Source: Acaryochloris marina MBIC11017 (GTDB lineage: Bacteria; Cyanobacteriota; Cyanobacteriia; Thermosynechococcales; Thermosynechococcaceae). From it: a stretch of DNA of 32,000 nt. The stretch covers positions 88,694 to 120,693 of the forward strand of contig NC_009933.1 of NCBI RefSeq assembly GCF_000018105.1, written 5' to 3'. The position numbers and the translations under genes were made by a program. Positions 1,624 through 23,764 of the stretch are shown here, one piece after another. The notes under the pieces were generated by a model. It saw only the letters and a program-made list of their open reading frames with translations. It searched no databases and had not been told where the DNA came from. The stretch's first letter is position 1; the number at the start of each line of letters is the position of its first letter.

Positions 1624-1671
1624 TCTTTTAGTTTTTTCATCAAAGGCTAACGGTGCAGTTAGCCTCAATCG

Positions 1672-1718
1672 GTGTTTAAGGTTTCGGACCCTCTGGTTGT
1701 TTGATCGCGGTTAGAGGG
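1672..1718. repeat. Direct repeat copy 2 (about 47 bp)
   Basis: gtgtttaaggtttcggaccctctggttgtttgatcgcggttagaggg, offset 96 bp from copy 1. A separate 7-bp-stem hairpin, GGCTAAC-ggtgca-GTTAGCC (1645..1664), lies between the copies. Confidence 0.9.
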
Positions 1719-2389
1719 CAATAGTAATCTTGTGTCGTCGGCAATCTAGGTAGCGAAGATCGAAATACCCTATTACCTAAAACGTGTTTGCAGTGGAGAA
1801 ATCGTTGATACTTCATGTCACCCCCCGATAAGCATTTGTTTTAATTGCTTGTTCTGTTTGTTTTCAGTCCAGAGGACAGATTGAGAATTGTGTAGCTAGA
1901 TAGTAAAAATTCTCATTAAATATAGTACATATGTATCAAAAATATCAATCATTCACCTCTTTGTAAATGGATTCTTAGGGTGTGCTTGTCGAGAATCAGG
2001 GATAAGGAAGAAATTGTGGCTCGGTGAAGAACAGTTTCTTTGCCTCAAGAACTATTTGAAAGACGCGTTAATTCTTGCTGCACATGACTTAGTTCCTTCC
2101 AGGTCTAGCTTTGTTTTGTAGGCAATGAAGGAAGCTACAGGACAAAGAATGAGGGTCCATTGCACAAATTAACTACCTGATTTGTGGATTGAGTCTCCCT
2201 GAGCCGTTTTGACGGTAAATTAGGAAGCCAATTTTTTCGCTTCTTAATTGGTATAGATAAATATTACATGTTACACATGGATTATGCAATTAATGATGAA
2301 ATGCTAGCCTAAAGTTTGAATCTATACGTATTCAGTTGTAAATATAGCTTTACCAATAAATGATGTAATTTTTGGAAGAAGTATGAACA

Positions 2390-2671
2390 ATGAAAAAAGT
2401 AGTGATCAACTGGAAACTCGCTGAAGTAATGCAAGCTAATGGTATTAGCCCAACCGACCTTGCTGCTGAGATGAAAATTAGTCGGAATGCCATATCAAAA
2501 ATGAGAAAGCATTACATGCCACGCATGGATGGTGAAAAGCTAAATAATTTATTGATATCCTTAAACACTTTGAGAAAGCCTGGAAAGAGGCCAATACGAG
2601 TAAGCCACTTGATAGTTGAGAGCTATACGTTGGAGGAAATGGAGCGGGCAAAAGTTGGTGAGTCTACATAG
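2390..2671 (+). CDS. XRE/Cro-C1-type helix-turn-helix transcriptional regulator
   Basis: 93-aa ORF with an HTH-like segment, ISPTDLAAEMKISRNAISKMRK. It is divergent from the sigma gene across an ~840-bp AT-rich intergenic region. Confidence 0.75.
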   Translation: MKKVVINWKLAEVMQANGISPTDLAAEMKISRNAISKMRKHYMPRMDGEKLNNLLISLNTLRKPGKRPIRVSHLIVESYTLEEMERAKVGEST

Positions 2672-2731
2672 ATTTTGATCTCATAGCTACTCTCCCTACC
2701 CTTCCTGTGTAGCTCATCGGCCACACAGAAA

Positions 2732-3595
2732 ATGCTCAAAACCACATTATTGTCACTTGGATTGTTGGCGATCACATTCTCGTCAGCCCTCGCCAATCCC
2801 GCTACAATTCCCATAGACAAGGCATTTAAACACACTCAGAAGCTAGAAGTTTCAGATGTAGATCATCTATTAGACTTCACGGATACCCGCTACCGGGTTA
2901 TCAAAGCCTTTCCCAGTAACCCTCAACAGTTGCGGGCCTTAAGCCTGTCTCGTAACGATCATCAGCAACTCCTTCTCAAGTGGACTCCCAACGGCACAGC
3001 CAAAAAGGCCAGTGTCTTCCTACGAGTCATGGGTCCAGGGGGAGAGCAAACCATCACCCTCTTGGTGAAGCGGTCTGGTAATGAACCGGACAATATCAGA
3101 ACAGCGTTTGTCCCCAGCCAAACCGTCTCCAAAGATGCCGTGATCGGGGAAGTAGCTGAAATTCCCCCCAAGCCAACTGTTGCACCCATCCCTAACCAAC
3201 TCATTCGCCCCAACTGGAAATCCCACAATTCACCCAAAACCGCACAGCCTGTTAAAGCTCCCTTAACCCTCACTCACCCGAAATCCCCACCCGTCCTCAA
3301 ACTCAGGGCGACACCCAAACCCATTCCCAGAATTGCCAAGGTCACTACTACAGGTCGGCCCCTTATCGACCGCACAACGCTAGACAACAAAGCCTTAGCC
3401 AACTACCTGTTGAGAGGACTACACCGGGCCAGAGGACTGCGGCAAATCAACCGCCATCACGACAACTACTGGTTCGCTCAATCAATGGCCCGCTATCTCA
3501 AACGAGGAGTGTCCGTTGATAAGGCCCTGCGCTGGTCCCGACTGCCTGAAAAAACCTTCAACGACCTCCTCGGCCACGGTGGTGTCAGTCGCTGA
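2732..3595 (+). CDS. Secreted protein of unknown function; possible periplasmic or outer-membrane T4SS component
   Basis: 287 aa. Signal peptide MLKTTLLSLGLLAITFSSALA, a beta-rich N-domain, a Pro-rich linker (PPKPTVAPIPNQ...PKSPPVLKLRATPKPIP) and a basic helical C-terminus. It is the first gene of the + strand cluster. Any VirB9-like role is only a guess. Confidence 0.6.
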   Translation: MLKTTLLSLGLLAITFSSALANPATIPIDKAFKHTQKLEVSDVDHLLDFTDTRYRVIKAFPSNPQQLRALSLSRNDHQQLLLKWTPNGTAKKASVFLRVMGPGGEQTITLLVKRSGNEPDNIRTAFVPSQTVSKDAVIGEVAEIPPKPTVAPIPNQLIRPNWKSHNSPKTAQPVKAPLTLTHPKSPPVLKLRATPKPIPRIAKVTTTGRPLIDRTTLDNKALANYLLRGLHRARGLRQINRHHDNYWFAQSMARYLKRGVSVDKALRWSRLPEKTFNDLLGHGGVSR

Positions 3596-3617
3596 AAGTA
3601 CTGCTGTTAAGGCAAAT

Positions 3618-3647
3618 TTGCACCTTCAAAGCCATCTTACCTATGTT
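3618..3647 (+). promoter_or_regulatory. Recurrent promoter-like motif P1 (TTGCAC-N18-TATGTT)
   Basis: aaatTTGCACcttcaaagccatcttaccTATGTTtc. It ends 32 nt before the ATG at 3680. It is one of six motif copies with identical 18-nt spacing. Confidence 0.6.
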
Positions 3648-3679
3648 TCTATCGTCCCCCCATCGGAGATTGAATCGTC

Positions 3680-4336
3680 ATGCAATCCCCCTTCCTCCAA
3701 CACACTCGGCACTATGCCCATAAATACGGACCTCAATGGTCTGCTCCAGTCCTCCTCGTCATCCTCACCCTCTGCCCCGTTTTTCTGCCATTAAATCCAG
3801 GCACCCAAATCGCCTGGTTAGAAATCATGGCACTGGTCTGGTCCACCGCCCTCTTCCTGCATCTCTATCAACTCCTCAATATTCAAACCAAGCTGGGCCT
3901 CTACCTCTTCTTCTCCGGGATGATTGCCTTGGTTCCCTCTATGGTGAAAGCCCAAAACGTCGGCAATGCCCCTTCCAGTGCCTGTAACTCCGGCTTCTTC
4001 CTGATCGGCCCCATGCTCGGAGCCGTGGATACTTCCTTGGGCTGGTTTCTGGGTGGCGTCCTCGCTTACTCCCTTTGCGCCTTTATGATTGCCTTGATGA
4101 TTGTCTTCTTCCTTGTCGTCATCGTCGGTTTAGTGATGGCTGGGGCAGAATCCCACAACAGCAAACGCACCCTGTTTGAAGTCCTCTCCCAATATCTGAA
4201 CGTGATCATCACCATGATGGTGATCGCCTCATTGGTGACCGTCTTTAACCTGCAATTGAGTAATAACGGCAACGCCGCTCCTATCCCCGTCGGTGGACAG
4301 AATCAGCCCCAAGGCGCGACCTCTGTGTTGAACTAG
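3680..4336 (+). CDS. Polytopic membrane protein; candidate VirB2/TrbC-like pilin precursor
   Basis: 218 aa with several TM helices. A possible leader cleavage site is VKA/QNVG. It is followed by ACNSGFFLIGPMLGA, which resembles the VirB2 segment ICTFILGPFGQ, and by two hydrophobic helices. It sits immediately upstream of VirB4. Confidence 0.5.
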   Translation: MQSPFLQHTRHYAHKYGPQWSAPVLLVILTLCPVFLPLNPGTQIAWLEIMALVWSTALFLHLYQLLNIQTKLGLYLFFSGMIALVPSMVKAQNVGNAPSSACNSGFFLIGPMLGAVDTSLGWFLGGVLAYSLCAFMIALMIVFFLVVIVGLVMAGAESHNSKRTLFEVLSQYLNVIITMMVIASLVTVFNLQLSNNGNAAPIPVGGQNQPQGATSVLN

Positions 4337-10480: not shown

Positions 10481-11158
10481 ATGACTAAGAAACTCTCTCG
10501 CTTCCTCCCCCTACTGGTGGTATCCGCCTTACTGCTGAATATCCTCGTATGCTTTTCCTGGTTTACTCAAGGAGCTAGAGCGCAAGCCCCCTCTCAGGTG
10601 TATATCCAAACCGACTCTGGGTTGGTGGTCAAAGGTAAGCCCGTGGATCCCCTCTACCGGAGTGATGAGGTGGTGATGCGGTTTGCCCAGGAATTTGTCT
10701 CCGTGGCCTACACCTGGCCGATGAATGGCGAAGGTCAAAATGAAGGCAAGCTAATCTATCCCCTGCCCATGTACACCCAAGCTTTCAAAATCCATCCTGA
10801 TATCCGGGCAGAGTGGTTAGGGCGTCAGCATATCACCTATGCCAAAGCCAAAGACCCTTTTGCTAACTATGTGGGCAAGCCCCAGCATACAAAGACGACC
10901 ATTACGGGAGCCAAGATTGAGCGTATGGACCCAGAGGCCCATGAATGGGATGTGCGCTTGTATGCCACCCAATACCGCTTTGATGGTCAAAACAACCTGA
11001 TCTTTAACCCCGTCAAGGTCAACAAGATATTGACCCTGAGAGCCGTCCAAGGCTTTCGACCCAACTGGCAAATTGCCGATACGGACCTGGGCCGCATGAT
11101 TGATGATGCCCTGCATTCAGAGCTACTGATTACCAACATTGTGGATCTGCCCACCTAG
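10481..11158 (+). CDS. Bitopic membrane protein; candidate VirB8/TrbF-like (NTF2-like) T4SS component
   Basis: 225 aa. N-terminal anchor FLPLLVVSALLLNILVCFSWF followed by a ~190-aa soluble domain. The size, topology and gene order fit VirB8, but I recognise no diagnostic motif. Confidence 0.5.
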   Translation: MTKKLSRFLPLLVVSALLLNILVCFSWFTQGARAQAPSQVYIQTDSGLVVKGKPVDPLYRSDEVVMRFAQEFVSVAYTWPMNGEGQNEGKLIYPLPMYTQAFKIHPDIRAEWLGRQHITYAKAKDPFANYVGKPQHTKTTITGAKIERMDPEAHEWDVRLYATQYRFDGQNNLIFNPVKVNKILTLRAVQGFRPNWQIADTDLGRMIDDALHSELLITNIVDLPT

Positions 11159-11191: not shown

Positions 11192-12544
11192 ATGCCGACA
11201 GACAAACGCCAGGTCGAGGAAGCCAAAGCGGCATTGTTGGATGACCCGGAACTCAATGAACTCTTAGAAGAGAACAAGATTGCTGAAGGTCGGCCCATCA
11301 ACGATCTAGAGAAACTGGTCGATCCAGGGGATAAAGTCAAACATCCCTACTATCTCCAGCCCTGGTTCAGGATTGGGAGTATCGCCATCCCCCTGATCAT
11401 CCTGGGATTTGTGGGCTATAAGATTTGGGGGCCAAAACCCCCGGTGGTGATGGCCTTGGGGGACAAGGATAAGCAGATTATCGAGCTGACGGAAAAACTT
11501 CAGCAGTCTGAATTAGAGAAAGCCCAGCTTACCCAAGACAATATGGGATTGACTCAGGCCGCAGAGTTAGAGCCATTTCAACAGCGACAAAAGCGGCTCA
11601 AGCAGCAGGCTCAGAAAGCTCGACAAGCCAAACAAAAGAAGCCTGTGCCTGTGGGGGGTAAACCCGTTCAGCGCCAGAATACCGTTAGCCTTCCTCGTCG
11701 GCTCTATCGCAGTCCATCTCCCAAAAGCAGCTTTACCCCAGCTAACCCCAGCCCCTCCTTGCTTGCGAAGGGTCCCTCATTGAGTGAATGTGTGGGCTAT
11801 GTGGAGCGGAATATTAACGTTCCAGGCTGTAAACGCTATCAGATTAGCCAGAAACCCCAGTCATCACCTCAGACCAATTCCATTGTCAAAAACCCAACAG
11901 TCCCTCGTCCCGCCTATACGCCAAGGCCCCAGACTAAGCCTGTTAAGTTGGCCTTTGCCAGTAAGAGCAAGTCCAAACCTCGGAAAAAAGTAACGCCTGA
12001 CTATCAGGTGAACTTTATGGCAGGTGAGATTCAAACGGTGGATCAGTTTGAGGCGGAGTTCTATGGTGCAGGCCAGAGCGCTACTGCACCGACGCGCACC
12101 TCAATGAAGGCCAAAGTGATTGATCATGTGGAATGGTTATCCCCTCAAGAGGCTCAACAGATGGTCATCCCTTTGAAAATTACCAGTGGTCCCCACAAAG
12201 GTCAGATGGCTGAGGCCAAGATTCAGCAGATGAATGGCTTGCAGTTCACGGCTCATGTGGTCAGCATCAATGGTCAAGCGATTGAACCAGGGACGATGGA
12301 GGTCAGGCGCAAGAATACCAAGTACCTGAGAGCGCAACTGAAGCGTCAGGGAGGAGAGTCTTTTGGGGATAGAGTGATGGGGACGGTAGCTGCAATAGGT
12401 GGGGAGATTGCCACGGATCAGTTAGTGGATGTGCGGGGTGGGAGTCACATTTCGAGGCTCGTATCTAATCCTCAGCGTAGGACCAGGGAAGTGACGCAGT
12501 ACTGGCGGTTCGATGGAGAGGTTGAGTTGGTGCCAGTGGGTTGA
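11192..12544 (+). CDS. Bitopic membrane protein with coiled-coil, Pro-rich linker and C-terminal beta domain; VirB10/TrbI-like architecture
   Basis: 450 aa with an AAGGAG SD sequence upstream. Acidic N-terminus, TM segment IGSIAIPLIILGFVGYKIW, coiled-coil, a long Pro/Lys/Ser-rich linker and a C-terminal ~150-aa beta-rich domain. Confidence 0.55.
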   Translation: MPTDKRQVEEAKAALLDDPELNELLEENKIAEGRPINDLEKLVDPGDKVKHPYYLQPWFRIGSIAIPLIILGFVGYKIWGPKPPVVMALGDKDKQIIELTEKLQQSELEKAQLTQDNMGLTQAAELEPFQQRQKRLKQQAQKARQAKQKKPVPVGGKPVQRQNTVSLPRRLYRSPSPKSSFTPANPSPSLLAKGPSLSECVGYVERNINVPGCKRYQISQKPQSSPQTNSIVKNPTVPRPAYTPRPQTKPVKLAFASKSKSKPRKKVTPDYQVNFMAGEIQTVDQFEAEFYGAGQSATAPTRTSMKAKVIDHVEWLSPQEAQQMVIPLKITSGPHKGQMAEAKIQQMNGLQFTAHVVSINGQAIEPGTMEVRRKNTKYLRAQLKRQGGESFGDRVMGTVAAIGGEIATDQLVDVRGGSHISRLVSNPQRRTREVTQYWRFDGEVELVPVG

Positions 12545-12602
12545 TGCGGTGTGTATCAAAGTTACTGAATTGTTTACAGAAAACATCAAACTGCAGCAAC
12601 GA

Positions 12603-12637
12603 TTTCAGCTCAATTCACCACATGTACTGAGCTGAAA
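12603..12637. terminator. Perfect 10-bp-stem hairpin between convergent genes
   Basis: TTTCAGCTCA-(15 nt)-TGAGCTGAAA. It lies 59 nt after the stop at 12544 (+) and 19 nt after the stop of the - strand ORF 12656..13054. There is no clear T-run. Confidence 0.4.
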
Positions 12638-12655
12638 GCCTGATAGTGATTTGAA

Positions 12656-13054
12656 TTAGGCTTTAGATCCCTCGGGACTGTATTGCTTCGTAAGTTTATC
12701 ATGCAATTTAAACCAGCCTGAAAGCCTCAATCTCATCCATAAACCACTTAGAATCATTTTTGCAGGACCGTTAATAATACTAAGATCCTTAATGCTCTCC
12801 CAAATAGTTATTCCGGCAGCTTTGCGATAGTCAGTACCAGTAATAACGCCTAAAAAAGTTGGCATGTTATCACGAGAGATACCATACTTAATACAAAAAT
12901 CAGCTAATTCATTGCAATATTGAACGTATTCTAAGACATCTTGGTTGGTAATTTTTTTTATTTGAATATCTGCCAAAATAGCTCTTGCCTCTAAAAAAGT
13001 AGGGGCAGTTGTTGATTTTTGAGCACAATTAAAGGCTTCTTTGTTATAGTCCAT
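12656..13054 (-). CDS. Hypothetical protein (AT-rich island)
   Basis: 132-aa ORF in the low-GC block. I recognise no motifs. Confidence 0.45.
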   Translation of the reverse strand: MDYNKEAFNCAQKSTTAPTFLEARAILADIQIKKITNQDVLEYVQYCNELADFCIKYGISRDNMPTFLGVITGTDYRKAAGITIWESIKDLSIINGPAKMILSGLWMRLRLSGWFKLHDKLTKQYSPEGSKA

Positions 13055-13395
13055 ATTTCGATAAATTAACGACTTAAATTAATTTTGGAAATGAAATTAC
13101 AGTTTGCAGCTTTATAATTTGAGTAACTAATTTATCATATGCTTTTGGTGAAATATCAATTTCAAGAATTTAATTTATGCGAATGCTTATATTTCTTCAC
13201 ATTAGCAACTCTCATATTACTTTTTTATACAATTAAAAAAATCATAAACTACAGCTTTTGTATGCCTCTTAGAATATTCGTTTCATGATGTGCTATTAGC
13301 TCAATTTATGCCACGATCTGGCCTAGAATTTTAGTCATGAACCATATCGTTAGCTTGATGTTGAAAGAGGTCTTGTCCCTGTTATATCAAACGAT

Positions 13396-13531
13396 TTTCA
13401 CCGCATAAGTTATCATGCCTATGTTTCCTTTGTAGCCCATCTACAGGGGATTCCTGTTTGTAACCCTCACTGTTCTCAAGCGATGCCCTACCCTCATCGC
13501 CTCCATCCTTATTGCAGCCTTTCAGACCCTT
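13396..13531 (+). pseudogene. Decayed duplicate of the promoter motif plus first ~26 codons of the hydrolase gene at 16596
   Basis: 13416..13531 aligns with 16558..16673: 116 bp with about 8 mismatches. It carries its own TTTCAC-N18-TATGTT motif. Both candidate start codons are mutated (TTG to CTG, GTG to GTA). The reading frame runs directly into AT-rich DNA. Confidence 0.85.
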
Positions 13532-13634
13532 AGTAAAAAGGAATTTTCCAGAGTATTTCTAAAGAAAATTAGTAGAATAATCTGTTGTTTCTCGTCAGTT
13601 ATTCAAATTAGAATCGAGTTAAAATATTTCAATT

Positions 13635-14609
13635 TTATGTTGGGATAAATACCAAAGCCTGTTGAACCAAAGTTCTTTGTTTCTTGCCGGGAAAGATTTT
13701 TGGCTCTGATGTAAACCAGCCATCACCATGGTAAATAGCCCAAAATGTACCTTCCCAACCATCAACATCTGCATCATCTTTCAAAAGACCAATTTTTGAG
13801 TATTGTGGTTCAGATGCAAAAAAATTAAATTTACTAGCAATACCAGATTTGATAGGCCGTCTAGCATTATCAATAAACCAACGCAATATTTCACCGTGTT
13901 CATCATTTGGGTTTATACCTGGAATGTCAACCCAGTAGCTTTCATGCGTAAGTGTATCTCTTGTTCCGAGCTTAGAAGTACTACCGTACTGTATAGAGTA
14001 ATTGGAAACTTCATCAAACCTGGGTGCATTTTCCAAAATATCGATAGGTTCTTTATACTCTGGCGGATTGTATGTTGCTGCAGGATCTAATAAAGTCATG
14101 GTATTTACACCACCAAGGAACTTTGCAGCATAGGCTCCTACATAGCTACCTAAGCTATGGGCAATTATGTTTATCTGCTTTGTTTCCACACGAGCTTGTT
14201 TCAGTATCTCTGACAGGGCATGACCAACACGTTCAACAGTTAGTGAGACAGAAATATAGTTTAGTGGTATCCCCTTTAAAGTGCTGCTTTTTGCAGCAGT
14301 ACTCCAGTCCATGATTAAAATCTGATCGGATGGACTAATTCCGTATAGATTTTCAGTATTGACATGTGGTATTACTTCGCCTTGTTTAGATCGAATTATT
14401 TCATCAAGGCTATTTACAAAGTGTTCAATCCTACTAGATTTAGGACTACTATTAAATCCGTGTATAACTATCCATATATTTGGTGCATTAGCATCTATTT
14501 TGTAGCCTCTTTCTTTGTGGTTATATGGAAAAAGAGATACTTTATAATTGATACTGACTTCATATTCTAGACTTGTTTTAAGCTGGTCTAAATCAGGATG
14601 ATTATTCAT
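13635..14609 (-). CDS. Pancreatic-lipase-family (PF00151-like) lipase or phospholipase A1
   Basis: 324 aa. Motifs are collinear with pancreatic lipase: IVIHGF, IMDW, VERVGHAL, NIIAHSLGSYVGAYAA (nucleophile elbow GxSxG, about 14150..14170) and TLLDPA (catalytic Asp context). No N-terminal signal peptide. Confidence 0.8.
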   Translation of the reverse strand: MNNHPDLDQLKTSLEYEVSINYKVSLFPYNHKERGYKIDANAPNIWIVIHGFNSSPKSSRIEHFVNSLDEIIRSKQGEVIPHVNTENLYGISPSDQILIMDWSTAAKSSTLKGIPLNYISVSLTVERVGHALSEILKQARVETKQINIIAHSLGSYVGAYAAKFLGGVNTMTLLDPAATYNPPEYKEPIDILENAPRFDEVSNYSIQYGSTSKLGTRDTLTHESYWVDIPGINPNDEHGEILRWFIDNARRPIKSGIASKFNFFASEPQYSKIGLLKDDADVDGWEGTFWAIYHGDGWFTSEPKIFPGKKQRTLVQQALVFIPT

Positions 14610-14785
14610 TTGATTTTTAGAGATACTCTTGAATTGTGATAGTTAGAACTATTTATTTAAAAGATTGTTTGCTCTTAGCTCTATAACTTAACTTGTATTT
14701 TGAAAAGACTATTAGCACTTTTAAAGTCAATCTTTAAAATTATTTAATATCTTTCTAAAATTTCTGTGACTCATTTTCTCTTAAC

Positions 14786-15712
14786 TCAAAAACCCTTACT
14801 GACAAACTCTTGAATTGAATTCATCATTTCTTCAAAAAAAGGATTTTTAGGTTCCAATGGAGAGCCATTTAAAGCCAAGACAGGTTCTTTCAGTACAACA
14901 CTGGCGTGAGGAACATTGAAGTGCTTGCCAATCCTATAGAACTCAGTGTTCTTATTATTCTTTGTAGTTTTGAAAATTAGTTCCTCTACCCCCTCAATAT
15001 CCGCCGCCTGGTCGCATTCAGAGTGAGCTACGAATAGAGGTTGGCTTAAAGGACTTTTTTTACCAAGTTTTCCAGTTATTTTTTCTACTTCTTGAATAAG
15101 ATTAGACAGCATTTTAGCGCCACCTGTATCCATCCTTGAGTATCGGTAGGGGTTATCGCCAATGAGGGGTTCACCCCATCTATCCTCCACCAAGTCAACA
15201 ATTGATGAAATTGGGGTGCGTAGTAAAAATTCCTTAAGATTACCCTTCTTCCCCGCAATATCTAACGCAGCAGAGAACAGAAATATGCCTCCATTGATAT
15301 CATCAGAATCTTTCATTGCCATAAAGACACTTAAAGAACCCCCAGTTGAAAGCCCACCAATGGATACTTTCTTCCCTTTAGTTTTTGCGTATTCAACCGC
15401 AAATTCTACATTTCGCTTCCATTCTTCTAAAGAAACACCTTTCATCCCATTCGGATTAAGTAGGCCATGACCTTGGAGTAATGGAATATAAACATTGAAC
15501 CCTAAAGTCTTGTGGAAGAACTCACCAATTGCCCTCATGAAATAGGGAGAGTCGGTCAAACCATGGATTAGAACAATTGCTTGATCACGCTGATCTTCCC
15601 ATTCCATAATTACGGGATGACATTCTGGTCTAATATCTGCTTCAGTAATATAACTGAAATTCTTATAATATTCTTCCCAGATTTTGAAATTATTTTTTGA
15701 ATAATCTAACAT
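14786..15712 (-). CDS. Alpha/beta hydrolase, Est/YvaK-like carboxylesterase or monoacylglycerol-lipase type
   Basis: 308 aa. Motifs are VLIHGLTDSP, LLQGHG, IGGLSTGG (GxSxG, about 15342..15362), an Asp in AHSECDQAAD and a His in NVPHASV. No signal peptide. Confidence 0.8.
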   Translation of the reverse strand: MLDYSKNNFKIWEEYYKNFSYITEADIRPECHPVIMEWEDQRDQAIVLIHGLTDSPYFMRAIGEFFHKTLGFNVYIPLLQGHGLLNPNGMKGVSLEEWKRNVEFAVEYAKTKGKKVSIGGLSTGGSLSVFMAMKDSDDINGGIFLFSAALDIAGKKGNLKEFLLRTPISSIVDLVEDRWGEPLIGDNPYRYSRMDTGGAKMLSNLIQEVEKITGKLGKKSPLSQPLFVAHSECDQAADIEGVEELIFKTTKNNKNTEFYRIGKHFNVPHASVVLKEPVLALNGSPLEPKNPFFEEMMNSIQEFVSKGF

Positions 15713-16537
15713 GCTATATATCCAAATCTTAAAAATGAATATAGGAATATATTCGAGTATATAAAAACATATTCAATTTTAGTTGTTTTGGCAAATGAAA
15801 TACATTTTTCTTTGCCTTATGGACTATTTGTGATACTCAATAATAATATTTCTTTCAGGTTGCATAAAATATCAATTTCGATCTGATATATACTGAATTT
15901 ATTGAGATTAAGTCTAATTATTTAGAAAAATTTAATAGGTGTAAGTTTCTATGTCTTTGTATTACTGGTTAATGATTTATCACAAATTTACGAGCTTTAA
16001 TCGATATTTAGGTTGATAATAAGCCTCTGTCCTAAAAATAAATGTATGTTACTTGCCCTTTCACGATTTAAGGTCAAATTATGTCACAATGCCTTGATTA
16101 AAGATGAGATCAATAAAGAATGATATCCTGACCTAAAACCTTGATAGGATCCTCTCTACTCGATCTTAAATTTCATATTAAATTGATTACTAATTGGTAA
16201 AAGTAATCATGTTGGTTACTTTTACCTTAGTGGTGCGTAAACTTTCTTATGCTGAAAATAGAAGAGCCTAAAGAATTGATATCAATGGTAGAAACCATCA
16301 CTTTCGTTGAATTTTCCTGAAGAACCCTCACCCATAATCCTTTATAGAATCCTTTGCTCGTAAGTGATACAAAGGTAAGCAACCTTGAATTTTGGAATAA
16401 GTTACACATGTGTAGCCAAAATTTTGTGTTGCTAATACTGATTAGTGGCTTTTCCTGATATCAAGTCTGCATCTTTGGTAAAGGTGACTTCCCAAGCTAT
16501 GCAGGCAACAGCCTCAACCCCTGACATATCAACCCAT

Positions 16538-16567
16538 TTGCACCTCAAAGGTCATCCTGCCTATGTT
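16538..16567 (+). promoter_or_regulatory. Recurrent promoter-like motif P3
   Basis: ccaTTTGCACctcaaaggtcatcctgccTATGTTtc. It ends 28 nt before the TTG start at 16596. Confidence 0.6.
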
Positions 16568-16595
16568 TCCTCTGTAGCCCATCTACAGGGGATTC

Positions 16596-19500
16596 TTGTT
16601 TGTGACCCTCCATGTTCTCAAGCGATGCCCTACCCTCATCGCCTCCATCCTGATTGCAGCCTCTCAGACTCTTCCCGTCTGGAGTCAAACTCAACAAGTC
16701 GGGTACTATCCCGCCCTAGAACTCGCCAATGTTCCTGGGTTAATCTACGAACCACCCCCGGAAGCTCAAGGGGTTTCCTTCTCCAGTCTCCCCGGTGCCA
16801 GCTCTCCCGGTTGGGTTGTCGTGAATGACCCCAACCTCAACTATGACCCCAACCGGGCTTGGCCCGCTGGAGCCACACCAGATCGGATCATCAAGTTTGG
16901 AGACTTAAAGCAAAACCCTCAGTTTGCAGGTTTTACTAAACACAGTCTCAGAGACTTTAACAATGCCATTGGCACCGACATCGGAGGAGTGCCCATCGGC
17001 CAGATTGAACTAGTCAATGGCCTCAACCTTGAACAGGTTAAAGACATTTACAACAACGGCGATATCAAACTCAAAGACTCAGCTCCCCTATTCCAAGCCG
17101 TCGTCGGTGTCGTTCTAGATCCCACAGGTGCCCAGAAGCAGCTTCAACGCAATGCCCTGAGTACGGGCAAGAAAGCTCTGATTAACGAACTGAATAAAAA
17201 CCCAGCCCTCAAAGATATCCCCTTTGAAGACCTCCTAGATGGCAATTGGCAAGGGGTACTCCAAGAAGGTGAACAGGTCTTACTTCGAGAAATTGGCAAT
17301 GACATTCCCGCAGAGCTGCGCCGCTTACCCGTGGGTGCTCTCACCATTGAAGTCATAGAAGGCAACTGGAAATCCGCCCGACAACGCGCCCAGAACTATG
17401 CCATTGATGAGATCCAAAACTTCACCCTCAATGAAATCATCCAAGAATTCCCCGAACTCAAGCAAGTGCCCATCGGTGGCATCGTCCATATCGCCAATCA
17501 GCCCCTAGACCAAGCCCTTCCTCAACTGGCAGATATGGCTTTAGAGCAATTCCCCGGCATTGAAGACAAGATCCTAGGCTCCGTCCCTGGCCTCAGTGAT
17601 ACGGCCCTTGGGTCTATCGTCGCTCCCGTCGTCTTCAACCTTCTAGCAGGGGATATATTTGGTCGGTTTGATATTGCCCATAGTGGTCAAGATGGGCCAG
17701 AAGAACATTATGGTAGGCCGATCAGTGGGGGCACCCCTGATGCAAAATTCAAGCCAGAACATGGGATTAAGAGTGCCACGAGCAGGAGCAAGCGACCAGA
17801 GCGAGGGTTCCCTCGGTTTGAGATGGCCCCTCTTGAACCAGGAACTACGATACTTGGTGATCCACTTCTAGGAAAGGAATGGATGAGTCGGGATCAGGAA
17901 GTGCCAGGGTGTAAAGGGTTTCTCTGTCTGTTTGGCAATAAGGAACGTGCAGGTATCAAACCCTTTGGCAATGGCTCTCTCACTAAGTTCAGCCTGGGGA
18001 ATATCACGGAATATGATGACAAACCCGCAGAAGCCAGACTATGGATTGACTTTCAGATCTGTGTCACCATCCTATTTGAGAAGCACTGCACAGCTCATAT
18101 CTTTAGTTTCAAAACACCATGGAAAGTCAAGGTGGGGGGCATCTTCCCGATCCTCGCCCGTCGTAGAGTCCAAGATTACTTTCCAGGGATTAACGAGAAG
18201 GCCAGAACCATTGACTTCTGCCAAGTCCCTGACTTCTTAGGGGGAACGACAACATCGGGGAATAGTCCCCCACCCCAAGGCGAAGTAGAAGCCTTTGAAC
18301 AATTCAAGTCAGATTCAGCCGCCATAGGCTTAAGCTTTGACCGAGATCCCCAAGGTCGCTTACTGGTGAATGAAGAGAATGAGGATGCGACCATAACCTG
18401 GGTTGCTCAGGAAGCAGGAACCTATGGATTTGAAGTGAATCAAGCAGACAATGGCACGATAACCTTTAATTACACGGGTGTTACACATCCATCGCCATCC
18501 CAAAGTGCAACCACCAGTAATGATGGTTTTTCGGGTGTTTTCCCAGGGACACTTCAACACCAACAGAGCAACAGTGGTTTGCAATCTAAAGCCCAATCCA
18601 ATGGCGTTCAGCTCCAGCCGATTGATGGGTCAAGTGGTGCCCCACAATTGACGGGCATACCGGGTAGACCAGGGGCAGTCAGTAGCCAGGGAATTACAGC
18701 CACCAAACCCTCAGATCCTCAACATCGTCTGAGACAGTATCTCGCCCGCATTGCCTTGGGTGAATCATCTGGGGGAACGGATATTGACGCCCATCCGAAT
18801 ACAGGAGCGTATGGGGAATATCAGTTTATCCCTGAGACGAGGCAAATAATTCTGGAGCGTTATGGTCTGGATGCTTGGTCAACGAATAAAGCCGAACGCG
18901 ATCAGGCGGCAGTGGCCTTGATCCAAGCCTTTGGTGATGAGATTGGGACGGACATTCTCGGCTTGATTGAGGCGGGTGAGTTTGAGCAAGCGGATCAGTT
19001 GCTCGGTCAACATGTTTACAGTCATGCTGGGAATGTACTTCGGTATGGTCAGTTCACCTCTTTACCGGGTGGAGCTGAACAGCATGAGATATGGAAAGAC
19101 CCTGCAATTCTGTCTCAATATGGTCCGAATGGGAATGCAGGGCAGAATCCACTGCTGGCAGCAATCAATACGAATTCACAGCGGTGTAATCCTGCGTTGT
19201 TGGCGAGCAATGGAAGTGTCAATTTTCAGCAAGGATCGGGGGTGGCGTCTGGGAAACTGGCTAACCCTTTAGCTGACTCATCTTACGTTGTTACAAGTAA
19301 TTTTGGATGGCGTTACGATCCTTTTACAGGGGACACTGACTGGCATTCTGGAATTGATTTAGCCCATTCCGCTGGCACCCCATTTAGGGCTGCAGATGGT
19401 GGAACAGTTGTAATGAGTCAATGGAATGGAGATTATGGGAATTTCATTCTGATTGACCACGGCAACGGGTTGGCGACTTGGTATGCTCACAATCAAACCA

Positions 19501-19685
19501 ATTATGTAAAAGTAGGTGATACCGTAGATCCGGGACAGGTCATTGGCACAGTAGGAAGCACAGGCAGATCTACTGGTCCCCATATAGATTTTGGAGTGGT
19601 TGAAGGCTATGTAAAAGGGAATATCCATTCAGGGACTAACGTTGACCCCAGAAAACATATCAACTTCAAGGGATTGAGGCAGTAA
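16596..19685 (+). CDS. Secreted bifunctional cell-wall hydrolase: lambda-lysozyme-like (GH104-type) lytic transglycosylase plus M23 peptidase
   Basis: 1029 aa. TTG or GTG start with signal peptide HVLKRCPTLIASILIAASQTLPVWS. About 18720..19100 encodes LGESSGGTDIDAHPNTGAYGEYQFIPETRQ...AERDQAAVALIQ...FTSLPGG, collinear with phage lambda R. About 19290..19640 holds the M23 motifs WHSGIDL, YAHN and GPHIDFGV. The N-terminal ~650 aa have no recognisable domain. Confidence 0.85.
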   Translation: MFVTLHVLKRCPTLIASILIAASQTLPVWSQTQQVGYYPALELANVPGLIYEPPPEAQGVSFSSLPGASSPGWVVVNDPNLNYDPNRAWPAGATPDRIIKFGDLKQNPQFAGFTKHSLRDFNNAIGTDIGGVPIGQIELVNGLNLEQVKDIYNNGDIKLKDSAPLFQAVVGVVLDPTGAQKQLQRNALSTGKKALINELNKNPALKDIPFEDLLDGNWQGVLQEGEQVLLREIGNDIPAELRRLPVGALTIEVIEGNWKSARQRAQNYAIDEIQNFTLNEIIQEFPELKQVPIGGIVHIANQPLDQALPQLADMALEQFPGIEDKILGSVPGLSDTALGSIVAPVVFNLLAGDIFGRFDIAHSGQDGPEEHYGRPISGGTPDAKFKPEHGIKSATSRSKRPERGFPRFEMAPLEPGTTILGDPLLGKEWMSRDQEVPGCKGFLCLFGNKERAGIKPFGNGSLTKFSLGNITEYDDKPAEARLWIDFQICVTILFEKHCTAHIFSFKTPWKVKVGGIFPILARRRVQDYFPGINEKARTIDFCQVPDFLGGTTTSGNSPPPQGEVEAFEQFKSDSAAIGLSFDRDPQGRLLVNEENEDATITWVAQEAGTYGFEVNQADNGTITFNYTGVTHPSPSQSATTSNDGFSGVFPGTLQHQQSNSGLQSKAQSNGVQLQPIDGSSGAPQLTGIPGRPGAVSSQGITATKPSDPQHRLRQYLARIALGESSGGTDIDAHPNTGAYGEYQFIPETRQIILERYGLDAWSTNKAERDQAAVALIQAFGDEIGTDILGLIEAGEFEQADQLLGQHVYSHAGNVLRYGQFTSLPGGAEQHEIWKDPAILSQYGPNGNAGQNPLLAAINTNSQRCNPALLASNGSVNFQQGSGVASGKLANPLADSSYVVTSNFGWRYDPFTGDTDWHSGIDLAHSAGTPFRAADGGTVVMSQWNGDYGNFILIDHGNGLATWYAHNQTNYVKVGDTVDPGQVIGTVGSTGRSTGPHIDFGVVEGYVKGNIHSGTNVDPRKHINFKGLRQ

Positions 19686-20203: not shown

Positions 20204-22006
20204 ATGCCCCAACAAACCACGCAACCCGCACCAGAATACAGAGGGTTCCACAACATTCCCATCAACTATGGCTGGCTCACCGTAGGCTTTCTCAGCATCG
20301 TCTTTATCATCTGGCTCAGCACCCTCAATCGACGCAGAACTCAAATTCCAGAGGGAATGCCAAATGCCAGAGAAGCCACCCCCAAAGAAATCAAAGAAGG
20401 GTCCAACAAAGCCAGACTGATCCGAGCTGAGGGTGATATCGAGAAGTCCGCGATCCAACTCAACCCAGAAACAGGCATCACCCTTGGACCTATCAACCCC
20501 GGTGGCCTCGTCTCAGGCAAAAGCGGTGGGGGAAAAACGGAAAGCTTTGCCCTTCGCCTGATCGAATCCCTCGCGGAAGATGGAGCCTCCCTGCTGATCA
20601 GTGACATCAAAGGCGAACTCATGGAGAAAACCGCCGCCTATCTCCATGACCTCGGCTATGACATCCACTTTCTCGCCCCTGGCATCAAAGAAACCTCAAA
20701 GTACTCCGTAGAAAAACTCCCCTTCTCCGGTGGCCTTAACCTCCTCGACCTGATCGCCAATGATGAAGACCTCGCAGGCACCCTTGAGCTGACCCGAGGC
20801 ATCAACATCAACGCCGCCGAGAACTATGAACGCAGACATCAATACTTCGGTCCCCAGTCCGACCTTCTGCAACAGTCCATGATGCTCGGAGCCAAAAGCA
20901 GTGAATATGCCGACATGCTGATGGTCTGGGAACTGATGGGCCTCAACAACATCGCCGAACGCTTAGCCGCAGCCAAAGACAACGACAAGATGGGGAAAGG
21001 ACTCCCCTACTTTATGACTCATCTGAGCCGAGGACTCAGAACCGTCGCTCATAGCTCCAGTAGTGCGAATCCTGGTCCCACCATTCAATCCACCGCTAGT
21101 CAGAACTGGGTTCAATTCCTCGACCCTGAGATCGCCAGATGCATGACCAAGACCACCATCCCCTTGGACCTCACGGGCAAACAAGCCATCTTCTTCCGTA
21201 TCAATGAAGACCAGCTAGAAGCCACCAAGACCTATCTCGCCGCTGCCATCCATATGCTGGTGAAGCGCAATATCAGGTATACCCGTAAACGTCAGAACAA
21301 CCTCGGCGTCATCATCGAAGAAGCCAGTTTCACCTTATTCCCAGATGCGAAGAAATGGTCTGCCCTAGGACGGCAAAATGGCCTGTTGCTGTGGATGATT
21401 TATCAGCAAGAAGAACAGATGCAGGAACTCTATGGCGAGAAGCGATGGGAAAGCACTGCTGCCAACCTGCCCTCCCGCATCTATATGAATCAGGGGTCCT
21501 ACAAGAGCAATCAAGTCATTGCCAGCCGCTTAGGGAAGAAAACCATCATCAGCACCACGGAAAATGAGTCCTTTGGTTCCAACCGTTCTCGGAGTCGCAA
21601 TGACAGCTTTCAACAAGTGGACTTGATGACCGCAGACCGCTTAGACGCCATGAAGAAACCAGGGCAGTGCATCATCGTCGATGCCTCCACCAATGGTCAC
21701 CCGATTATCTATGAGAAGAAACAGCTTCCCTATGACAAGAACAGCTCCCAGGCCAAGATTAGGGAGCAGTGCAAAGACGCATGGCGAGAGAACATCCTTC
21801 CCAGCCTGCAAGAGGAACATCAGAAGCACTTTGGGATGATCAATGTCCAAGTGGCAATGGAGAACAGAGCCGCAGCCGCAGAGGATCTACTCCCACCTTC
21901 AGAGTATTACGCCATTGAAGAAGAAGCCGCTGAGATTGACGCAGAAGAAGCCACTGAAGACACCACAGATATAGACGAACAGGAGGATATTCAAGATGCA
22001 GCATAG
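20204..22006 (+). CDS. virD4: Type IV coupling protein (VirD4/TraG family)
   Basis: 600 aa. N-terminal TM segment GWLTVGFLSIVFIIWLSTL. Walker A is SGKSGGGKTES (about 20517..20546). The TraG/VirD4 signature is LGVIIEEASF...GRQNGLLLWMIYQQEEQMQELYGEK. The C-terminal tail is highly acidic. Confidence 0.9.
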   Translation: MPQQTTQPAPEYRGFHNIPINYGWLTVGFLSIVFIIWLSTLNRRRTQIPEGMPNAREATPKEIKEGSNKARLIRAEGDIEKSAIQLNPETGITLGPINPGGLVSGKSGGGKTESFALRLIESLAEDGASLLISDIKGELMEKTAAYLHDLGYDIHFLAPGIKETSKYSVEKLPFSGGLNLLDLIANDEDLAGTLELTRGININAAENYERRHQYFGPQSDLLQQSMMLGAKSSEYADMLMVWELMGLNNIAERLAAAKDNDKMGKGLPYFMTHLSRGLRTVAHSSSSANPGPTIQSTASQNWVQFLDPEIARCMTKTTIPLDLTGKQAIFFRINEDQLEATKTYLAAAIHMLVKRNIRYTRKRQNNLGVIIEEASFTLFPDAKKWSALGRQNGLLLWMIYQQEEQMQELYGEKRWESTAANLPSRIYMNQGSYKSNQVIASRLGKKTIISTTENESFGSNRSRSRNDSFQQVDLMTADRLDAMKKPGQCIIVDASTNGHPIIYEKKQLPYDKNSSQAKIREQCKDAWRENILPSLQEEHQKHFGMINVQVAMENRAAAAEDLLPPSEYYAIEEEAAEIDAEEATEDTTDIDEQEDIQDAA

Positions 22007-22433
22007 TCAAGACCAGACCTTAGAGCGGGATGCAGAGAAAGGAATGCACCTGGCCGAGGAAGGGGTAGAAAAAGCAGCCAGACTGACGGCTGAGACTCTA
22101 CGAATACTTAGGGCACAACTCGCTAAGTACAACAATCGAGTGTCCATTAAATTTGAGTCACGAGCAGATGATATTGCTAACGTCAAAGCAGGGATGCAAG
22201 GAGGACTCAAGGGTGTACAGCTCAGGCAGATTGTCAGGGCGGGTGACTCGATCAAGGAAGTGGCTCAGCGAGCCCAGTCAGCGGAGAAAGTGAAGCTGTA
22301 TGAGGACCGGGTCATGTCCAGGGCACAACATGAGTTGAATCGAGAGAAGGTGGAACATCGTCGTTCCCAGCAGTCGCAGCAGTCCCAGAAACAGAGTCAA
22401 AGGCAGTCTCAGTCTCAGAATCTGGGATTGTAG
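21996..22433 (+). CDS. Hypothetical helical protein with Gln/Ser-rich tail, translationally coupled to the coupling protein
   Basis: 145 aa. Its ATG overlaps the virD4 stop by 11 nt. The tail is RRSQQSQQSQKQSQRQSQSQNLGL. Confidence 0.6.
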   Translation: MQHSQDQTLERDAEKGMHLAEEGVEKAARLTAETLRILRAQLAKYNNRVSIKFESRADDIANVKAGMQGGLKGVQLRQIVRAGDSIKEVAQRAQSAEKVKLYEDRVMSRAQHELNREKVEHRRSQQSQQSQKQSQRQSQSQNLGL

Positions 22434-22478
22434 TCGGTATCAATCTAAGTTTTAAAGTCAGAAATAACAAATCAACTA

Positions 22479-22570
22479 CCCCGCTGCAAGCAGACGAGGT
22501 ATGAAATACGACTTGCTACCAAACCGTAGATTTGGATCGCAATTCCATTTCTTCGCTGTAAGCAGCGGGG
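22479..22570. repeat. 92-bp segment bounded by 9-bp inverted repeats
   Basis: CCCCGCTGC (22479..22487) pairs with GCAGCGGGG (22562..22570). The near-direct repeat AATCAAC flanks it at 22470..22476 and 22571..22577. An internal GCAAG/CTTGC stem is present. It lies 46 nt after the stop at 22433. Confidence 0.5.
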
Positions 22571-22914
22571 AATCAACCCCTACTAGATTGAATTATATAG
22601 TCTAAGAAAATTGAAATATTGCAAGTTTACTTGCCAGAGAGTTCGCAAGTGAAAAACGACAATTCCTGATTCTAGCAGCAGTTATTTTCGATTTATGGTT
22701 AATTAGTTCAGTAAAATACTCAATTTCATTTAAAATACTCCTTTTAAAATCTTTTGAATGCCTTATTAAACTTAGCCTTTAAGATTTTTATCATCCCTAT
22801 TACAACCTATTTAGCTTCCAGAGAATGCTTAAAATTGCCTCAAATAATTTTTAATAATATCCTGGTTAAATAATAGGTAAAATATTTTAACTAAAAATAT
22901 AATTTTTCTAGGAG

Positions 22915-23415
22915 TTGAAATACATAGTTATGCCAATAGTGTATGGAAATGCTGGTAAATTTTTTGGAAATTACTGGTATATGAATTTTAACTTTGATTT
23001 TGAGCTTGGTGATGCATCAGAAGCTTCTGGAAATAGTGGATTTTATCTAATTCATGCCAGCAGATTAGTTTCTGTTAAGCCTATAGGGTTTTGCCTAGAA
23101 TTATCTGAAAAGCCATTAAAATATCAAGTTGTTTATTCTAGTGGACATACTATTCAATCGTATGGTGATCAGTATTTCTACGATAAGTCACCTTCAGTTT
23201 ATAGATTAGAGAAAAAAGCCGATTTTGACTACTCTTTACTTATGCCTGAAGAAGGAGGCAATGGGTTTCAAGCACAGCCTCATGTAGTAGGAGATGGTTT
23301 AGTGGTATACGGAACTAGCACAGGTAATGCATTTGTGCTAACGGGTACAGAGGGAGGAAACCCCCATTTAACCTTGAAGATATCACCATTAGGTGTCGAA
23401 GTTGGAAATGGCTAG
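22915..23415 (+). CDS. Hypothetical protein (AT-rich island 2)
   Basis: 166-aa ORF. The start may be the TTG at 22915 or the ATG at 22930. It is Gly/Tyr/Phe-rich and has no recognisable motifs. Confidence 0.45.
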   Translation: MKYIVMPIVYGNAGKFFGNYWYMNFNFDFELGDASEASGNSGFYLIHASRLVSVKPIGFCLELSEKPLKYQVVYSSGHTIQSYGDQYFYDKSPSVYRLEKKADFDYSLLMPEEGGNGFQAQPHVVGDGLVVYGTSTGNAFVLTGTEGGNPHLTLKISPLGVEVGNG

Positions 23416-23658
23416 AAAAATAACAAGGTCTTTGAAATATCTTCTTCTAAAATGAAGAATGGTTTTAATAACTTTATTATAATGAAGTGAGAAAATTAGA
23501 TTCCTTAAAATATTGTCAATGACCTAAATTAGACCTCTTGTAGAATTGATCTAACGATCTGATTTAAGATAGAAAACCTAAATTTAGATCGCAGTATAAA
23601 TTTTTTTGTTAGCTCATCACTAAACAAACATTGCAAGAGGTCTATTGTCCAAGGCGTA

Positions 23659-23764
23659 ACATGAACTGAATTGCGAGAAGGTTGAACATCGTCGATCCTA
23701 GCAACCAGAACAGTCCCAGAAGCAGAATCAAAAGCAGTCCCAGCCCCAGGATTTTGGGTTGTAG
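23659..23764 (+). pseudogene. Decayed duplicate of the 3' end of ORF 21996..22433
   Basis: 106 bp collinear with 22328..22433, roughly 80% identical by eye. It includes the terminal ...GGGTTGTAG, and an in-frame TAG interrupts it. Confidence 0.8.

Follow-up and report, generated by a model that had tools for sequence, protein, structure and literature searches.

A decayed copy of a promoter and gene start in a cargo hot spot between transfer operons of an Acaryochloris plasmid, a probable scar of recombination between sister plasmids

In a family of Acaryochloris plasmids, the DNA between the stop codon of a 450-aa gene and the -35 box of the M23 hydrolase operon serves as a cargo hot spot. 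In the plasmid studied here, the promoter and first codons of the hydrolase gene occur twice in this hot spot, as a 155-bp direct repeat whose upstream copy has lost its start codon. The upstream copy is probably a scar of unequal or illegitimate recombination between sister backbones, which stacked two cargo modules in one site. The window, meaning the whole 32,000-nt stretch that was analysed, comes from a 120,693-bp plasmid within a ten-replicon, 8.36-Mb genome. Its relevant features are the following.

11192..12544, plus: 450-aa gene, last of the upstream transfer operon; no Pfam or NCBIfam match
12545..13260, minus: cargo module A, an orphan 132-aa gene and AT-rich spacer; G+C 0.32, GC3 0.29
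12656-13054, minus: the 132-aa orphan ORF of module A, without a family match
13261..13374, plus: decayed MITE copy of hot spot 1, 114 nt, with the TIR TAGACCTCTTGCAA and a TA target duplication; 81% identical to consensus
13377..13531, plus: upstream copy, probably dead, of the promoter, leader hairpin and first 24-26 M23 hydrolase codons; a decayed 155-nt match
13532..16518, minus: cargo module B, a lipase-family gene, an esterase gene and a small ORF; G+C 0.34
13635-14609, minus: lipase-family alpha/beta hydrolase (Pfam Lipase, 1.7e-7)
14786-15712, minus: Hydrolase_4-type esterase (Pfam Hydrolase_4, 1.3e-10)
16227-16409, minus: small ORF of module B, the fourth of the block, 90% conserved at the amino acid level in one relative
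16519..16673, plus: functional copy, with a conserved upstream sequence, the promoter, leader hairpin, gene start and signal-peptide-like codons; 86-92% conserved in four sister plasmids
16596..19685, plus: 1029-aa cell-wall hydrolase, first gene of the downstream transfer operon (C-terminal domain, Pfam Peptidase_M23, 3e-29)
22315..23764, plus: second hot spot with a like scar, in which 23646-23764 duplicates the last 119 nt of the ORF at 21996-22433
23530-23644, minus: second MITE copy, in hot spot 2, abutting the left edge of the 23646-23764 scar

The block between the transfer operons has about 33% G+C versus 50-51% in the flanks (0.32 in 12545-13264, 0.34 in 13532-16518, 0.23-0.31 in intergenic stretches), and 300-nt windows inside it span 24 to 43%. 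GC3 is 0.26-0.34 in the three cargo genes and 0.47-0.61 in the flanking core genes (G+C 0.50-0.51). A sequence-only reading of this DNA had described such a contrast. The computed profile confirms that the contrast is real and puts the flanks at about 51%, not the 55% given there. That reading had also placed the three ORFs of the block on the opposite strand, as they are (12656-13054, 13635-14609 and 14786-15712), and had seen foreign-looking cargo splitting the transfer cluster at an operon boundary, which is supported. None of the cargo proteins had a match in PADLOC or NCBIfam. The sole homologue of the 132-aa protein, 67% identical, lies among unrelated neighbours on a metagenome contig. 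The 1029-aa hydrolase is annotated in sister plasmids as an M23 family metallopeptidase.

The edges of the hot spot are sharp. Homology stops exactly at the TGA of the 450-aa gene (12542-12544), with unrelated DNA beyond it, in all eight copies from six elements; the right edge precedes the -35 box by 4-25 nt. Seven different contents were found in the interval from the 450-aa gene to the M23 gene, each close relative having its own cargo. Those at hot spot 1 include the following.

Plasmid pMB06: LRR, COR and DUF4062 genes
Plasmid pREC4: a RecB-like nuclease, VapC and a recombinase
A. marina S15 plasmid: a hydrolase and other genes
Contig C8: further different genes

An empty site occurs in contig C3, a diverged sister plasmid of the same genome, where 60 bp separate the homologues of the flanking genes and the same promoter motif directly follows the stop codon. 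The comparison with related plasmids proposed in the sequence-only reading has in this way yielded both an unoccupied site and, in pMB06, pREC4, S15 and C8, alternative cargoes. The backbone genes are collinear in C8 (72-96% at the amino acid level, or 88-96% in another comparison of backbone proteins), a sister plasmid co-resident in the same cell, in three Acaryochloris plasmids from PLSDB (83-92% at the nucleotide level) and, more distantly, in C3; the orthologues of the 450-aa gene stand at 88% (C8) and 45% (C3) at the amino acid level. The 450-aa gene was not found in the other 400 cyanobacterial genomes sampled, and a family-level DNA search added only three genomes, so that the comparison covers about eight elements. 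In a published MobF relaxase phylogeny, pREC4 groups with pREB7 and pREB8 (PMC9324425). An integrase-driven island or an integron cassette was considered and rejected: there is no recombinase domain in the block or the adjacent genes, there are no inverted-repeat sites at its borders, and no Rfam family was matched in the window.

The closest known parallel is provided by the hotspots of the SXT/R391 ICEs. In these elements variable DNA occupies fixed intergenic sites (HS1-HS5) of a syntenic transfer backbone, and the boundaries are identical at the nucleotide level between elements with unrelated contents. The left junction of HS2 lies right after a stop codon and its right junction at a set distance before the following gene; earlier insertions have left nested remains, and recombination between co-resident sister elements has been invoked (Wozniak et al. 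2009, PMC2791158). The Acaryochloris plasmid family likewise has HS2-like edges at a stop codon and ahead of the next gene, in addition to a syntenic backbone, differing cargo at one site, sharp borders and an unoccupied version. Unlike the SXT/R391 elements, these plasmids form a cyanobacterial family whose transfer system is unrelated and poorly annotated, and it is partial copies of backbone genes (promoter plus 5′ end, or 3′ end) that record what was there before. Because the same logic has been described for proteobacterial ICEs, the hot-spot pattern seems to hold for conjugative elements in general and not for one lineage only. The result is a nucleotide-level picture of how co-resident Acaryochloris megaplasmids gain and shuffle accessory genes without harming their transfer operons: the point of entry lies precisely between a stop codon and the promoter that follows, and each exchange between sister plasmids can leave behind a dead piece of backbone.

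The two copies of the repeat (13377-13531 and 16519-16673) are 88% identical over 155 nt, with 18 mismatches and no gaps (BLAST E = 1.6e-51 in a search against the 8.36-Mb genome), and outside both ends identity drops at once to random levels (1-3 of 10 positions). An earlier count of about 8 mismatches in a 116-bp match was accurate; 13416-13531 and 16558-16673 differ at exactly 8 positions. The promoter-like motif of the functional copy consists of a -35 element TTGCAC (16538-16543), an 18-nt spacer and a -10 element TATGTT (16562-16567), followed by the leader hairpin at 16568-16592. The repeat then covers 26 codons counted from the TTG at 16596, or 24 from the conserved GTG at 16602. What is dispersed on the plasmids is the 45-nt promoter motif only, which lies ahead of other transfer operons and recurs upstream of about 18 genes on four plasmids. 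The match was rightly taken for a true copy of the M23 gene start and not a dispersed repeat. Exact-pattern scans for the promoter and leader in metagenome and genome contigs gave no match.

In the upstream copy, the TTG has become CTG (13454) and the GTG has become GTA (13460-13462). Both starts are indeed changed, as had been claimed, but CTG need not be inactivating by itself. Since the functional copies of two sister plasmids also have CTG at this position, only the change from GTG to GTA is clearly inactivating. In line with the original description, the frame of the upstream copy continues into AT-rich DNA; it is 64 codons long, lacks a start codon, and no long frame is present. Judged by these changes, the copy has decayed since it was formed and is now probably inert. 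It differs at 18 positions from its own downstream copy and at 18 from the pREC4 copy.

The duplicate is not a singular event. Fragments of the cognate backbone genes are found inside the cargo of this plasmid and four relatives, five elements in all, at three hot spots, and all seven scars lie in direct orientation, each in its own hot spot.

This plasmid: scars of the flanking genes at hot spots 1 and 2
C8: 81 nt from the 3′ end of the 450-aa gene, and about 160 nt of promoter and hydrolase sequence
S15 plasmid: a 92-113-nt promoter fragment
L013 (metagenomic contig): 232 nt from the 3′ end of the 450-aa gene
pREC4: a fragment of about 225 nt with the virD4 promoter and gene start

The hot spot 2 duplicate of this plasmid is 79% identical to the local ORF and closer to the C8 version (86%). 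An upstream fragment, taken with the cargo on its left, matches a native junction between cargo and intact promoter elsewhere: the C8 fragment with its cargo Y matches L015, and the S15 fragment with its hydrolase has counterparts in this window and in L013. In C8 and in this plasmid the upstream fragments stop at the identical nucleotide, directly after CAGACYCTT, with unrelated DNA on either side.

L013 contains module B itself, the same pair of hydrolases in the same order, this block being 85% identical overall. To the left of this block is the 3′ fragment of the 450-aa gene, with no duplicate of the promoter or gene start. Identity is a mosaic: 91-100% (95-100% in another estimate) from the esterase to the promoter (14832-16545), 75-82% (or 75-80%) in the lipase gene and 82% in the adjacent backbone. 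These differing segments indicate repeated exchange. There is no homology between 13532-13670 of the window and the matching L013 flank, and divergence begins inside the 3′ end of the lipase gene.

In the reading we favour as the probable one, the hot spot would hold two stacked modules, A (the orphan 132-aa gene and the MITE) and B (the esterase and lipase-like pair). The upstream copy would be the remnant of a promoter-hydrolase junction that once closed module A as its right end. This junction would have been cut after about codon 26 on joining DNA of a sister backbone, which brought another module along with an intact promoter-hydrolase junction belonging to it. This could happen in one step, through unequal or illegitimate recombination of sister plasmids; formation of a cointegrate or tandem backbone followed by deletion would be an equivalent route in two. 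The available homology would have been the entire sister backbone, and the 155 bp would be what remains of it rather than the recombination substrate, because L013 lacks the duplicate, the pREC4 copy is equally close, C8 shares the breakpoint and the scars recur. Recombination with a diverged sister element had been the second choice of the sequence-only reading, and it agrees with the empty site, the recurrent scars and L013.

This order of events and the illegitimate nature of the junction at 13531/13532 are what we infer from the repeat, the decay of its upstream copy, the hot spot and its empty version, the repeated occurrence of scars in one orientation, and the presence elsewhere of module B without the duplicate, all of which are seen directly. 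The original junction between module A and the hydrolase gene is likewise presumed, since no donor with module A beside an intact hydrolase gene was found; the only other context of the 132-aa homologue is unrelated. No partner sequence could be identified at 13531/13532. When the left and right backbone were compared for discordance from a recent crossover, the ranking of the sisters by similarity was identical on both sides. The breakpoint that C8 and this plasmid share beside different neighbours is not predicted by simple independent illegitimate events; it needs common descent followed by cargo turnover, or a hot spot of breakage.

In homology-facilitated illegitimate recombination, as in unequal crossover of tandem or cointegrated replicons, one junction forms in extended homology and the other is illegitimate, and a truncated duplicate of the anchor gene is left beside the new DNA. 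The duplicate described here would be of this kind, with a sister plasmid in place of transformed foreign DNA as the putative donor. The scar is a well-documented case of a known, ordinary process and reveals no new mechanism or function. Such scars can serve as markers for ordering cargo acquisitions, and as direct repeats they also offer a way for modules to be lost.

The sequence-only reading had instead preferred that a small circle, with the two hydrolase genes and a piece of promoter and gene start (about 120 bp in its estimate, about 155 bp by the present alignment), entered the resident promoter by a single homologous crossover of the Campbell type to give the 13.5-16.5 kb sub-block. 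Direct repeats of the crossover segment with sharp ends (13377-13531 and 16519-16673) do flank the sub-block, as they would after integration of a circular element, and the topology is formally the same as that of the sister-plasmid model if the circle arose by illegitimate excision from a sister plasmid. We consider this origin unlikely. L013 is a relative that carries the block without the left repeat, in its native context between the end of the 450-aa gene and the promoter, an arrangement that the sequence-only reading had itself named as a refutation. Divergence between the two repeats amounts to 12%, and the pREC4 copy resembles the upstream copy just as closely as the downstream one does. 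C8 has the same right breakpoint with other cargo. The scars of the 450-aa 3′ end in relatives are on the opposite flank, where a circle with promoter homology alone does not account for them, and there is no recombinase or attachment site.

A role for the MITE would concern the left ends of the scars. The repeat is 114 nt long and has no coding capacity, with the TIRs TAGACCTCTTGCAA and TTGCAAGAGGTCTA, flanking TA and about 51 genomic BLAST matches; it is IS630/Tc1-mariner-like, the link to the IS630 superfamily being by resemblance only. This 120-kb plasmid has only two copies, each within 1-2 nt of the left edge of a scar, that of hot spot 1 ending 2 nt before the upstream repeat copy. Homologous recombination between MITEs in sister plasmids, or a transposase-driven rearrangement, could have joined the modules, so that the left scar edges would be MITE insertion sites and not random breaks. 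Consistent with this, the hot spot 2 fragment starts exactly at the TA target of the C8-type gene (GGGTA/TTGTCC in C8), where the MITE sits, and the DNA across the MITE is unrelated; no duplicated homology lies beyond the far side of either copy. Against it, the C8 scars have no adjoining dispersed repeat, the hot spot 1 copy lies at a natural boundary of core and cargo where simple insertion is possible, and the right breakpoint at codon 26 is left unexplained, so that only the left junctions could be covered. As the whole explanation MITE joining is improbable; as a contributing step it is compatible with sister-backbone recombination, and because both copies on the plasmid abut scars, joining mediated by a transposable element may have had a share in the mechanism, in place of plain illegitimate recombination. 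The breakpoint CAGACYCTT was also considered as a MITE pseudo-end: it resembles the terminal repeat TAGACCTCTT only directly, not inverted, and the break falls after it, not before.

That both MITEs lie at scar edges and that the fragments of two co-resident plasmids end at an identical nucleotide suggests a further, rather improbable, view in which cargo capture would be semi-specific, depending on small mobile repeats and on a favoured breakpoint where the signal-peptide codons end. On that view the plasmid family would possess a dedicated mechanism, guided by repeats, by which accessory modules are stacked and exchanged between transfer operons.

Finally, the upstream copy might have been kept for a function, either as a second promoter whose antisense transcripts cross the minus-strand cargo genes and reach the hydrolase operon or as a decoy site for the regulator of the transfer regulon. 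Its -10 hexamer, spacing and leader hairpin are intact, the C8 fragment retains every invariant promoter position, and two plasmids retain fragments that share a right end. This is nevertheless very improbable, as three positions invariant in 18 other copies of the motif are mutated here (the G of ATTTG, which belongs to the -35 element, the C of CAT and the T before GCCTA), and two of the five close relatives have no upstream promoter copy at all. The likely remaining effect of the upstream copy is to form a direct repeat with the functional one, so that module B could be deleted between them.

The window spans 88694-120693 of C9, one of ten contigs of an 8.36-Mb genome (6,503,724; 374,161; 356,087; 273,121; 226,680; 177,162; 172,728; 155,110; 120,693; and 2,133 bp). 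We take C9 to be pREB8, and the contig C8 to be pREB7, of Acaryochloris marina MBIC11017, which carries plasmids pREB1 to pREB9. The database neighbours of the window are all Acaryochloris plasmids, typed as conjugative and MOBF. In a relaxase phylogeny, pREC4 of strain MBIC10699 falls into one group with pREB7 and pREB8 (PMC9324425). Another paper describes 37 Acaryochloris strains (PMC8949462). The backbone genes encode a VirB4-like ATPase, a 450-aa protein, an M23 hydrolase and a VirD4-like coupling protein, and their order is collinear on C8 and three public Acaryochloris plasmids. The first hot spot for cargo is the gap between the genes for the 450-aa protein and the M23 hydrolase:

11192-12544, plus strand: 450-aa transfer gene
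12656-13054, minus strand: 132-aa gene, which with its spacer forms module A
13377-13531: upstream copy (relic) of the hydrolase promoter and gene start
13532-16518: module B, an esterase and lipase-family pair with a small ORF
16519-16673: functional copy of the promoter and gene start
16596-19685, plus strand: M23 hydrolase gene

The sequence-only reading had described this gap as an AT-rich block containing a duplicate of the downstream promoter and gene start, an observation confirmed here with two small corrections. The compositional contrast is real, with G+C of 0.32-0.34 across the block (cargo-gene GC3 0.26-0.34) and 0.50-0.51 in the flanking transfer genes (GC3 0.47-0.61), although the flanks stand at about 51% G+C and not the 55% first estimated. 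As had been seen, the three cargo ORFs all lie on the minus strand. A repeat search of the window extended the duplicate to a direct repeat of 155 nt with 88% identity; ungapped comparison gave 18 mismatches, with identity at chance level right outside both ends, and the figure of about 8 mismatches in the 116-bp part proved to be exactly 8. The repeat includes a promoter-like motif (TTGCAC, 18 nt, TATGTT) and reaches 24-26 codons into the gene for a 1029-aa protein that has an M23 peptidase domain at its C-terminus. In the leader, past the -10 hexamer and ahead of the start codon, is a hairpin with a 10-bp stem and a 5-nt loop (16568-16592 in the functional copy, 13426-13450 upstream), followed by a T-rich run. 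An AGGGGA ribosome-binding-like sequence lies within its 3′ arm, and the hairpin may serve as an operator or in the control of translation.

The upstream copy has decayed. Both of its possible start codons had been called mutated; the change of GTG to GTA is clearly inactivating, while that of TTG to CTG, six bases 5′ of the conserved GTG, is not clearly so. Its frame does run on as described, for 64 codons to a stop with no start codon. The coding part of the relic differs from the functional copies at 5-7 of 67 positions, those copies differing among themselves at 2-9, and the 39 nt upstream differ at 9-18 positions. Overall, 18 differences separate the relic from its own partner and as many from the pREC4 copy; it was therefore not copied recently from its neighbour.

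The promoter motif itself, ATTTGCNNC-N15-CTGCCTAYGTTYC, occurs about 19 times on C3, C6, C8 and C9, all contigs of this genome, each time 30-45 nt before a start codon; sites in the window include 3612, 16532, 20166 and 25531. The genes that follow are transfer and other plasmid genes, a distribution that looks like a plasmid-specific regulon. The motif copy at 13390 carries three changes at positions invariant in the other 18 copies; the upstream copy on C8 keeps all three. Candidate regulators nearby are a sigma-70-family gene (278-1549, minus strand) and a Cro/C1-type HTH gene (2390-2671). A perfect 37-nt direct repeat (1587-1623 and 1682-1718, 95 bp apart) is located just upstream of the sigma-factor gene.

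Each element has its own cargo at hot spot 1. It comprises LRR, COR and DUF4062 genes in pMB06, a RecB-like nuclease, a VapC toxin, a recombinase and others in pREC4, and two hypothetical genes, an alpha/beta hydrolase and a short M23 gene in the S15 plasmid, with further sets in C8 and two draft contigs. The edges of the site are nearly fixed. On the left, in eight copies (six elements), homology runs precisely as far as the TGA of the 450-aa gene, and on the right it restarts 4-25 nt before the -35 element. The sister backbone on C3 (45-55% protein identity) has an empty site, with the flanking genes 60 bp apart and the stop codon of the 450-aa-gene homologue directly adjoining the same promoter motif. 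The hot spot is therefore a few bases, reaching from a stop codon to the next promoter.

Fragments of backbone genes are left as scars at this hot spot and at two others, in this plasmid and its relatives:

C8, hot spot 1: 81 nt copied from the 450-aa gene's 3′ end, 96% identical to the window version and 87% to the gene on C8 itself
C8, hot spot 1: about 160 nt of promoter and hydrolase start
S15 plasmid: 92-113-nt promoter copy, ending about two codons inside the gene
L013, an unrelated metagenomic contig: 232-nt 3′ fragment of the 450-aa gene
Window, hot spot 2: 23646-23764, repeating the last 119 nt (22315-22433) of the ORF at 21996-22433
pREC4, third hot spot: about 225 nt of virD4 promoter and gene start, 11754-11975 and 12754-12977, direct, 80% identical

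The virD4-start scar of pREC4 lies 1 kb upstream of the real start and encloses one minus-strand gene; the same hot spot measures only about 150 bp in the window and about 7 kb in C8. The duplicate in hot spot 2 is 79% identical to the 3′ end of its neighbour and ends at the stop codon. Its identity to the C8 orthologue is higher, at 86%, a sign of exchange with a sister plasmid. By our own count, all seven of seven scars are cognate to a gene flanking their own hot spot, and all seven are in direct orientation. This is the pattern expected if sister backbones, directly aligned, recombine unequally. Transposition, or the insertion of unrelated circles, does not predict it.

The C8 upstream fragment and the cargo on its left align with contig L015, in which the same cargo precedes a promoter and hydrolase gene that are intact. 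The S15 fragment and the window's functional copy have a common left flank (16494-16518 in the window), and before the S15 fragment lies a homologue of the window esterase (44% protein identity). These alignments assign each upstream fragment to the cargo on its left, and by analogy 13377-13531 would once have closed module A (the 132-aa gene and a MITE) on its right. No donor combining module A with an intact promoter-hydrolase junction was found.

The lipase-family protein of module B has only two homologues in a collection of 5.8 billion proteins. One is on L013, after a 95%-identical esterase and in the same order as in the window, the pair of Hydrolase_4-type esterase and rare lipase occupying 834-3006 there and 13635-15712 here; on a third contig, L012, the lipase is paired with a 470-aa Hydrolase_4 protein. 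The L013 alignment spans 13671-16545, with identity of 91-100% from esterase to promoter, 75-82% in the lipase gene and none beyond, unevenness that indicates repeated exchange. To the left of module B, L013 has the 450-aa-gene fragment, a SLATT_2 gene and another end of the 450-aa gene, an arrangement in which module B is native to a sister element's hot spot. No promoter copy lies left of module B on L013. The sequence-only reading had preferred a Campbell-type entry, a circle carrying 13.5-16.5 kb inserted by single crossover through about 120 bp of homology, and the presence of module B without the duplicate on L013 argues against it, being one of the findings that this reading had itself named as refuting. 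Recombination between sister elements, offered there as the alternative, is favoured by these comparisons.

A similar organisation is known from the SXT/R391 ICE family, which has five intergenic hotspots whose conserved/variable boundaries are equal despite unrelated contents; one left junction falls right after a stop codon, and the right junction is a fixed distance before the next gene (PMC2791158). Nested remains of earlier insertions have been described there, and the authors discuss recombination mechanism and selection as causes, noting frequent recombination between tandem elements (PMC2791158). The window locus has the same hotspot organisation, but in a cyanobacterial plasmid family, and is a further example of it. 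What it adds is the backbone-gene fragments left as scars.

How the individual junctions formed admits more than one explanation. The upstream fragments of C8 and C9 share one end point to the nucleotide (after CAGACYCTT, equivalent to position 16673), as gapped local alignment with the two functional copies showed. Common descent followed by cargo turnover would explain this, as would a tendency to break where the signal-peptide codons end; beyond the breakpoint C8 and C9 match at 7 of 32 nt, which is chance level, and the DNA flanking the two fragments is unrelated on both sides. The left junctions suggest a role for a 114-nt MITE with TAGACCTCTTGCAA terminal inverted repeats and TA duplications, which BLAST finds about 51 times in the genome, including 38 times on the chromosome. 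C9 has only two copies:

13261-13374, plus strand: MITE ending 2 nt before the upstream fragment
23530-23644, minus strand: MITE 1 nt before the hot-spot-2 fragment

Both adjoin the left edge of a backbone-gene scar, an association unlikely to be due to chance. The hot-spot-2 fragment starts at a TA found in the C8-type gene (GGGTA/TTGTCC), the DNA past the MITE is unrelated, and no homology continues across either MITE on C9. Recombination between MITE copies, or rearrangement adjacent to them, may have made at least the left junctions, but the C8 scars have no dispersed repeat alongside.

A second dispersed repeat of about 125 nt (22468-22592), bounded by CCCCGCTGC and GCAGCGGGG, occurs in about 24 copies, most of them plasmid-borne and 11 of them on C4. 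It begins 35 nt after the stop of the ORF at 21996-22433, at the left edge of a second AT-rich island. On C8, an insertion of about 1.4 kb (2906-4303) splits the orthologue of the gene at 10481-11158. It contains a 437-aa minus-strand ORF, has 35-nt inverted repeats of 91% identity at its edges, and looks like an IS element.
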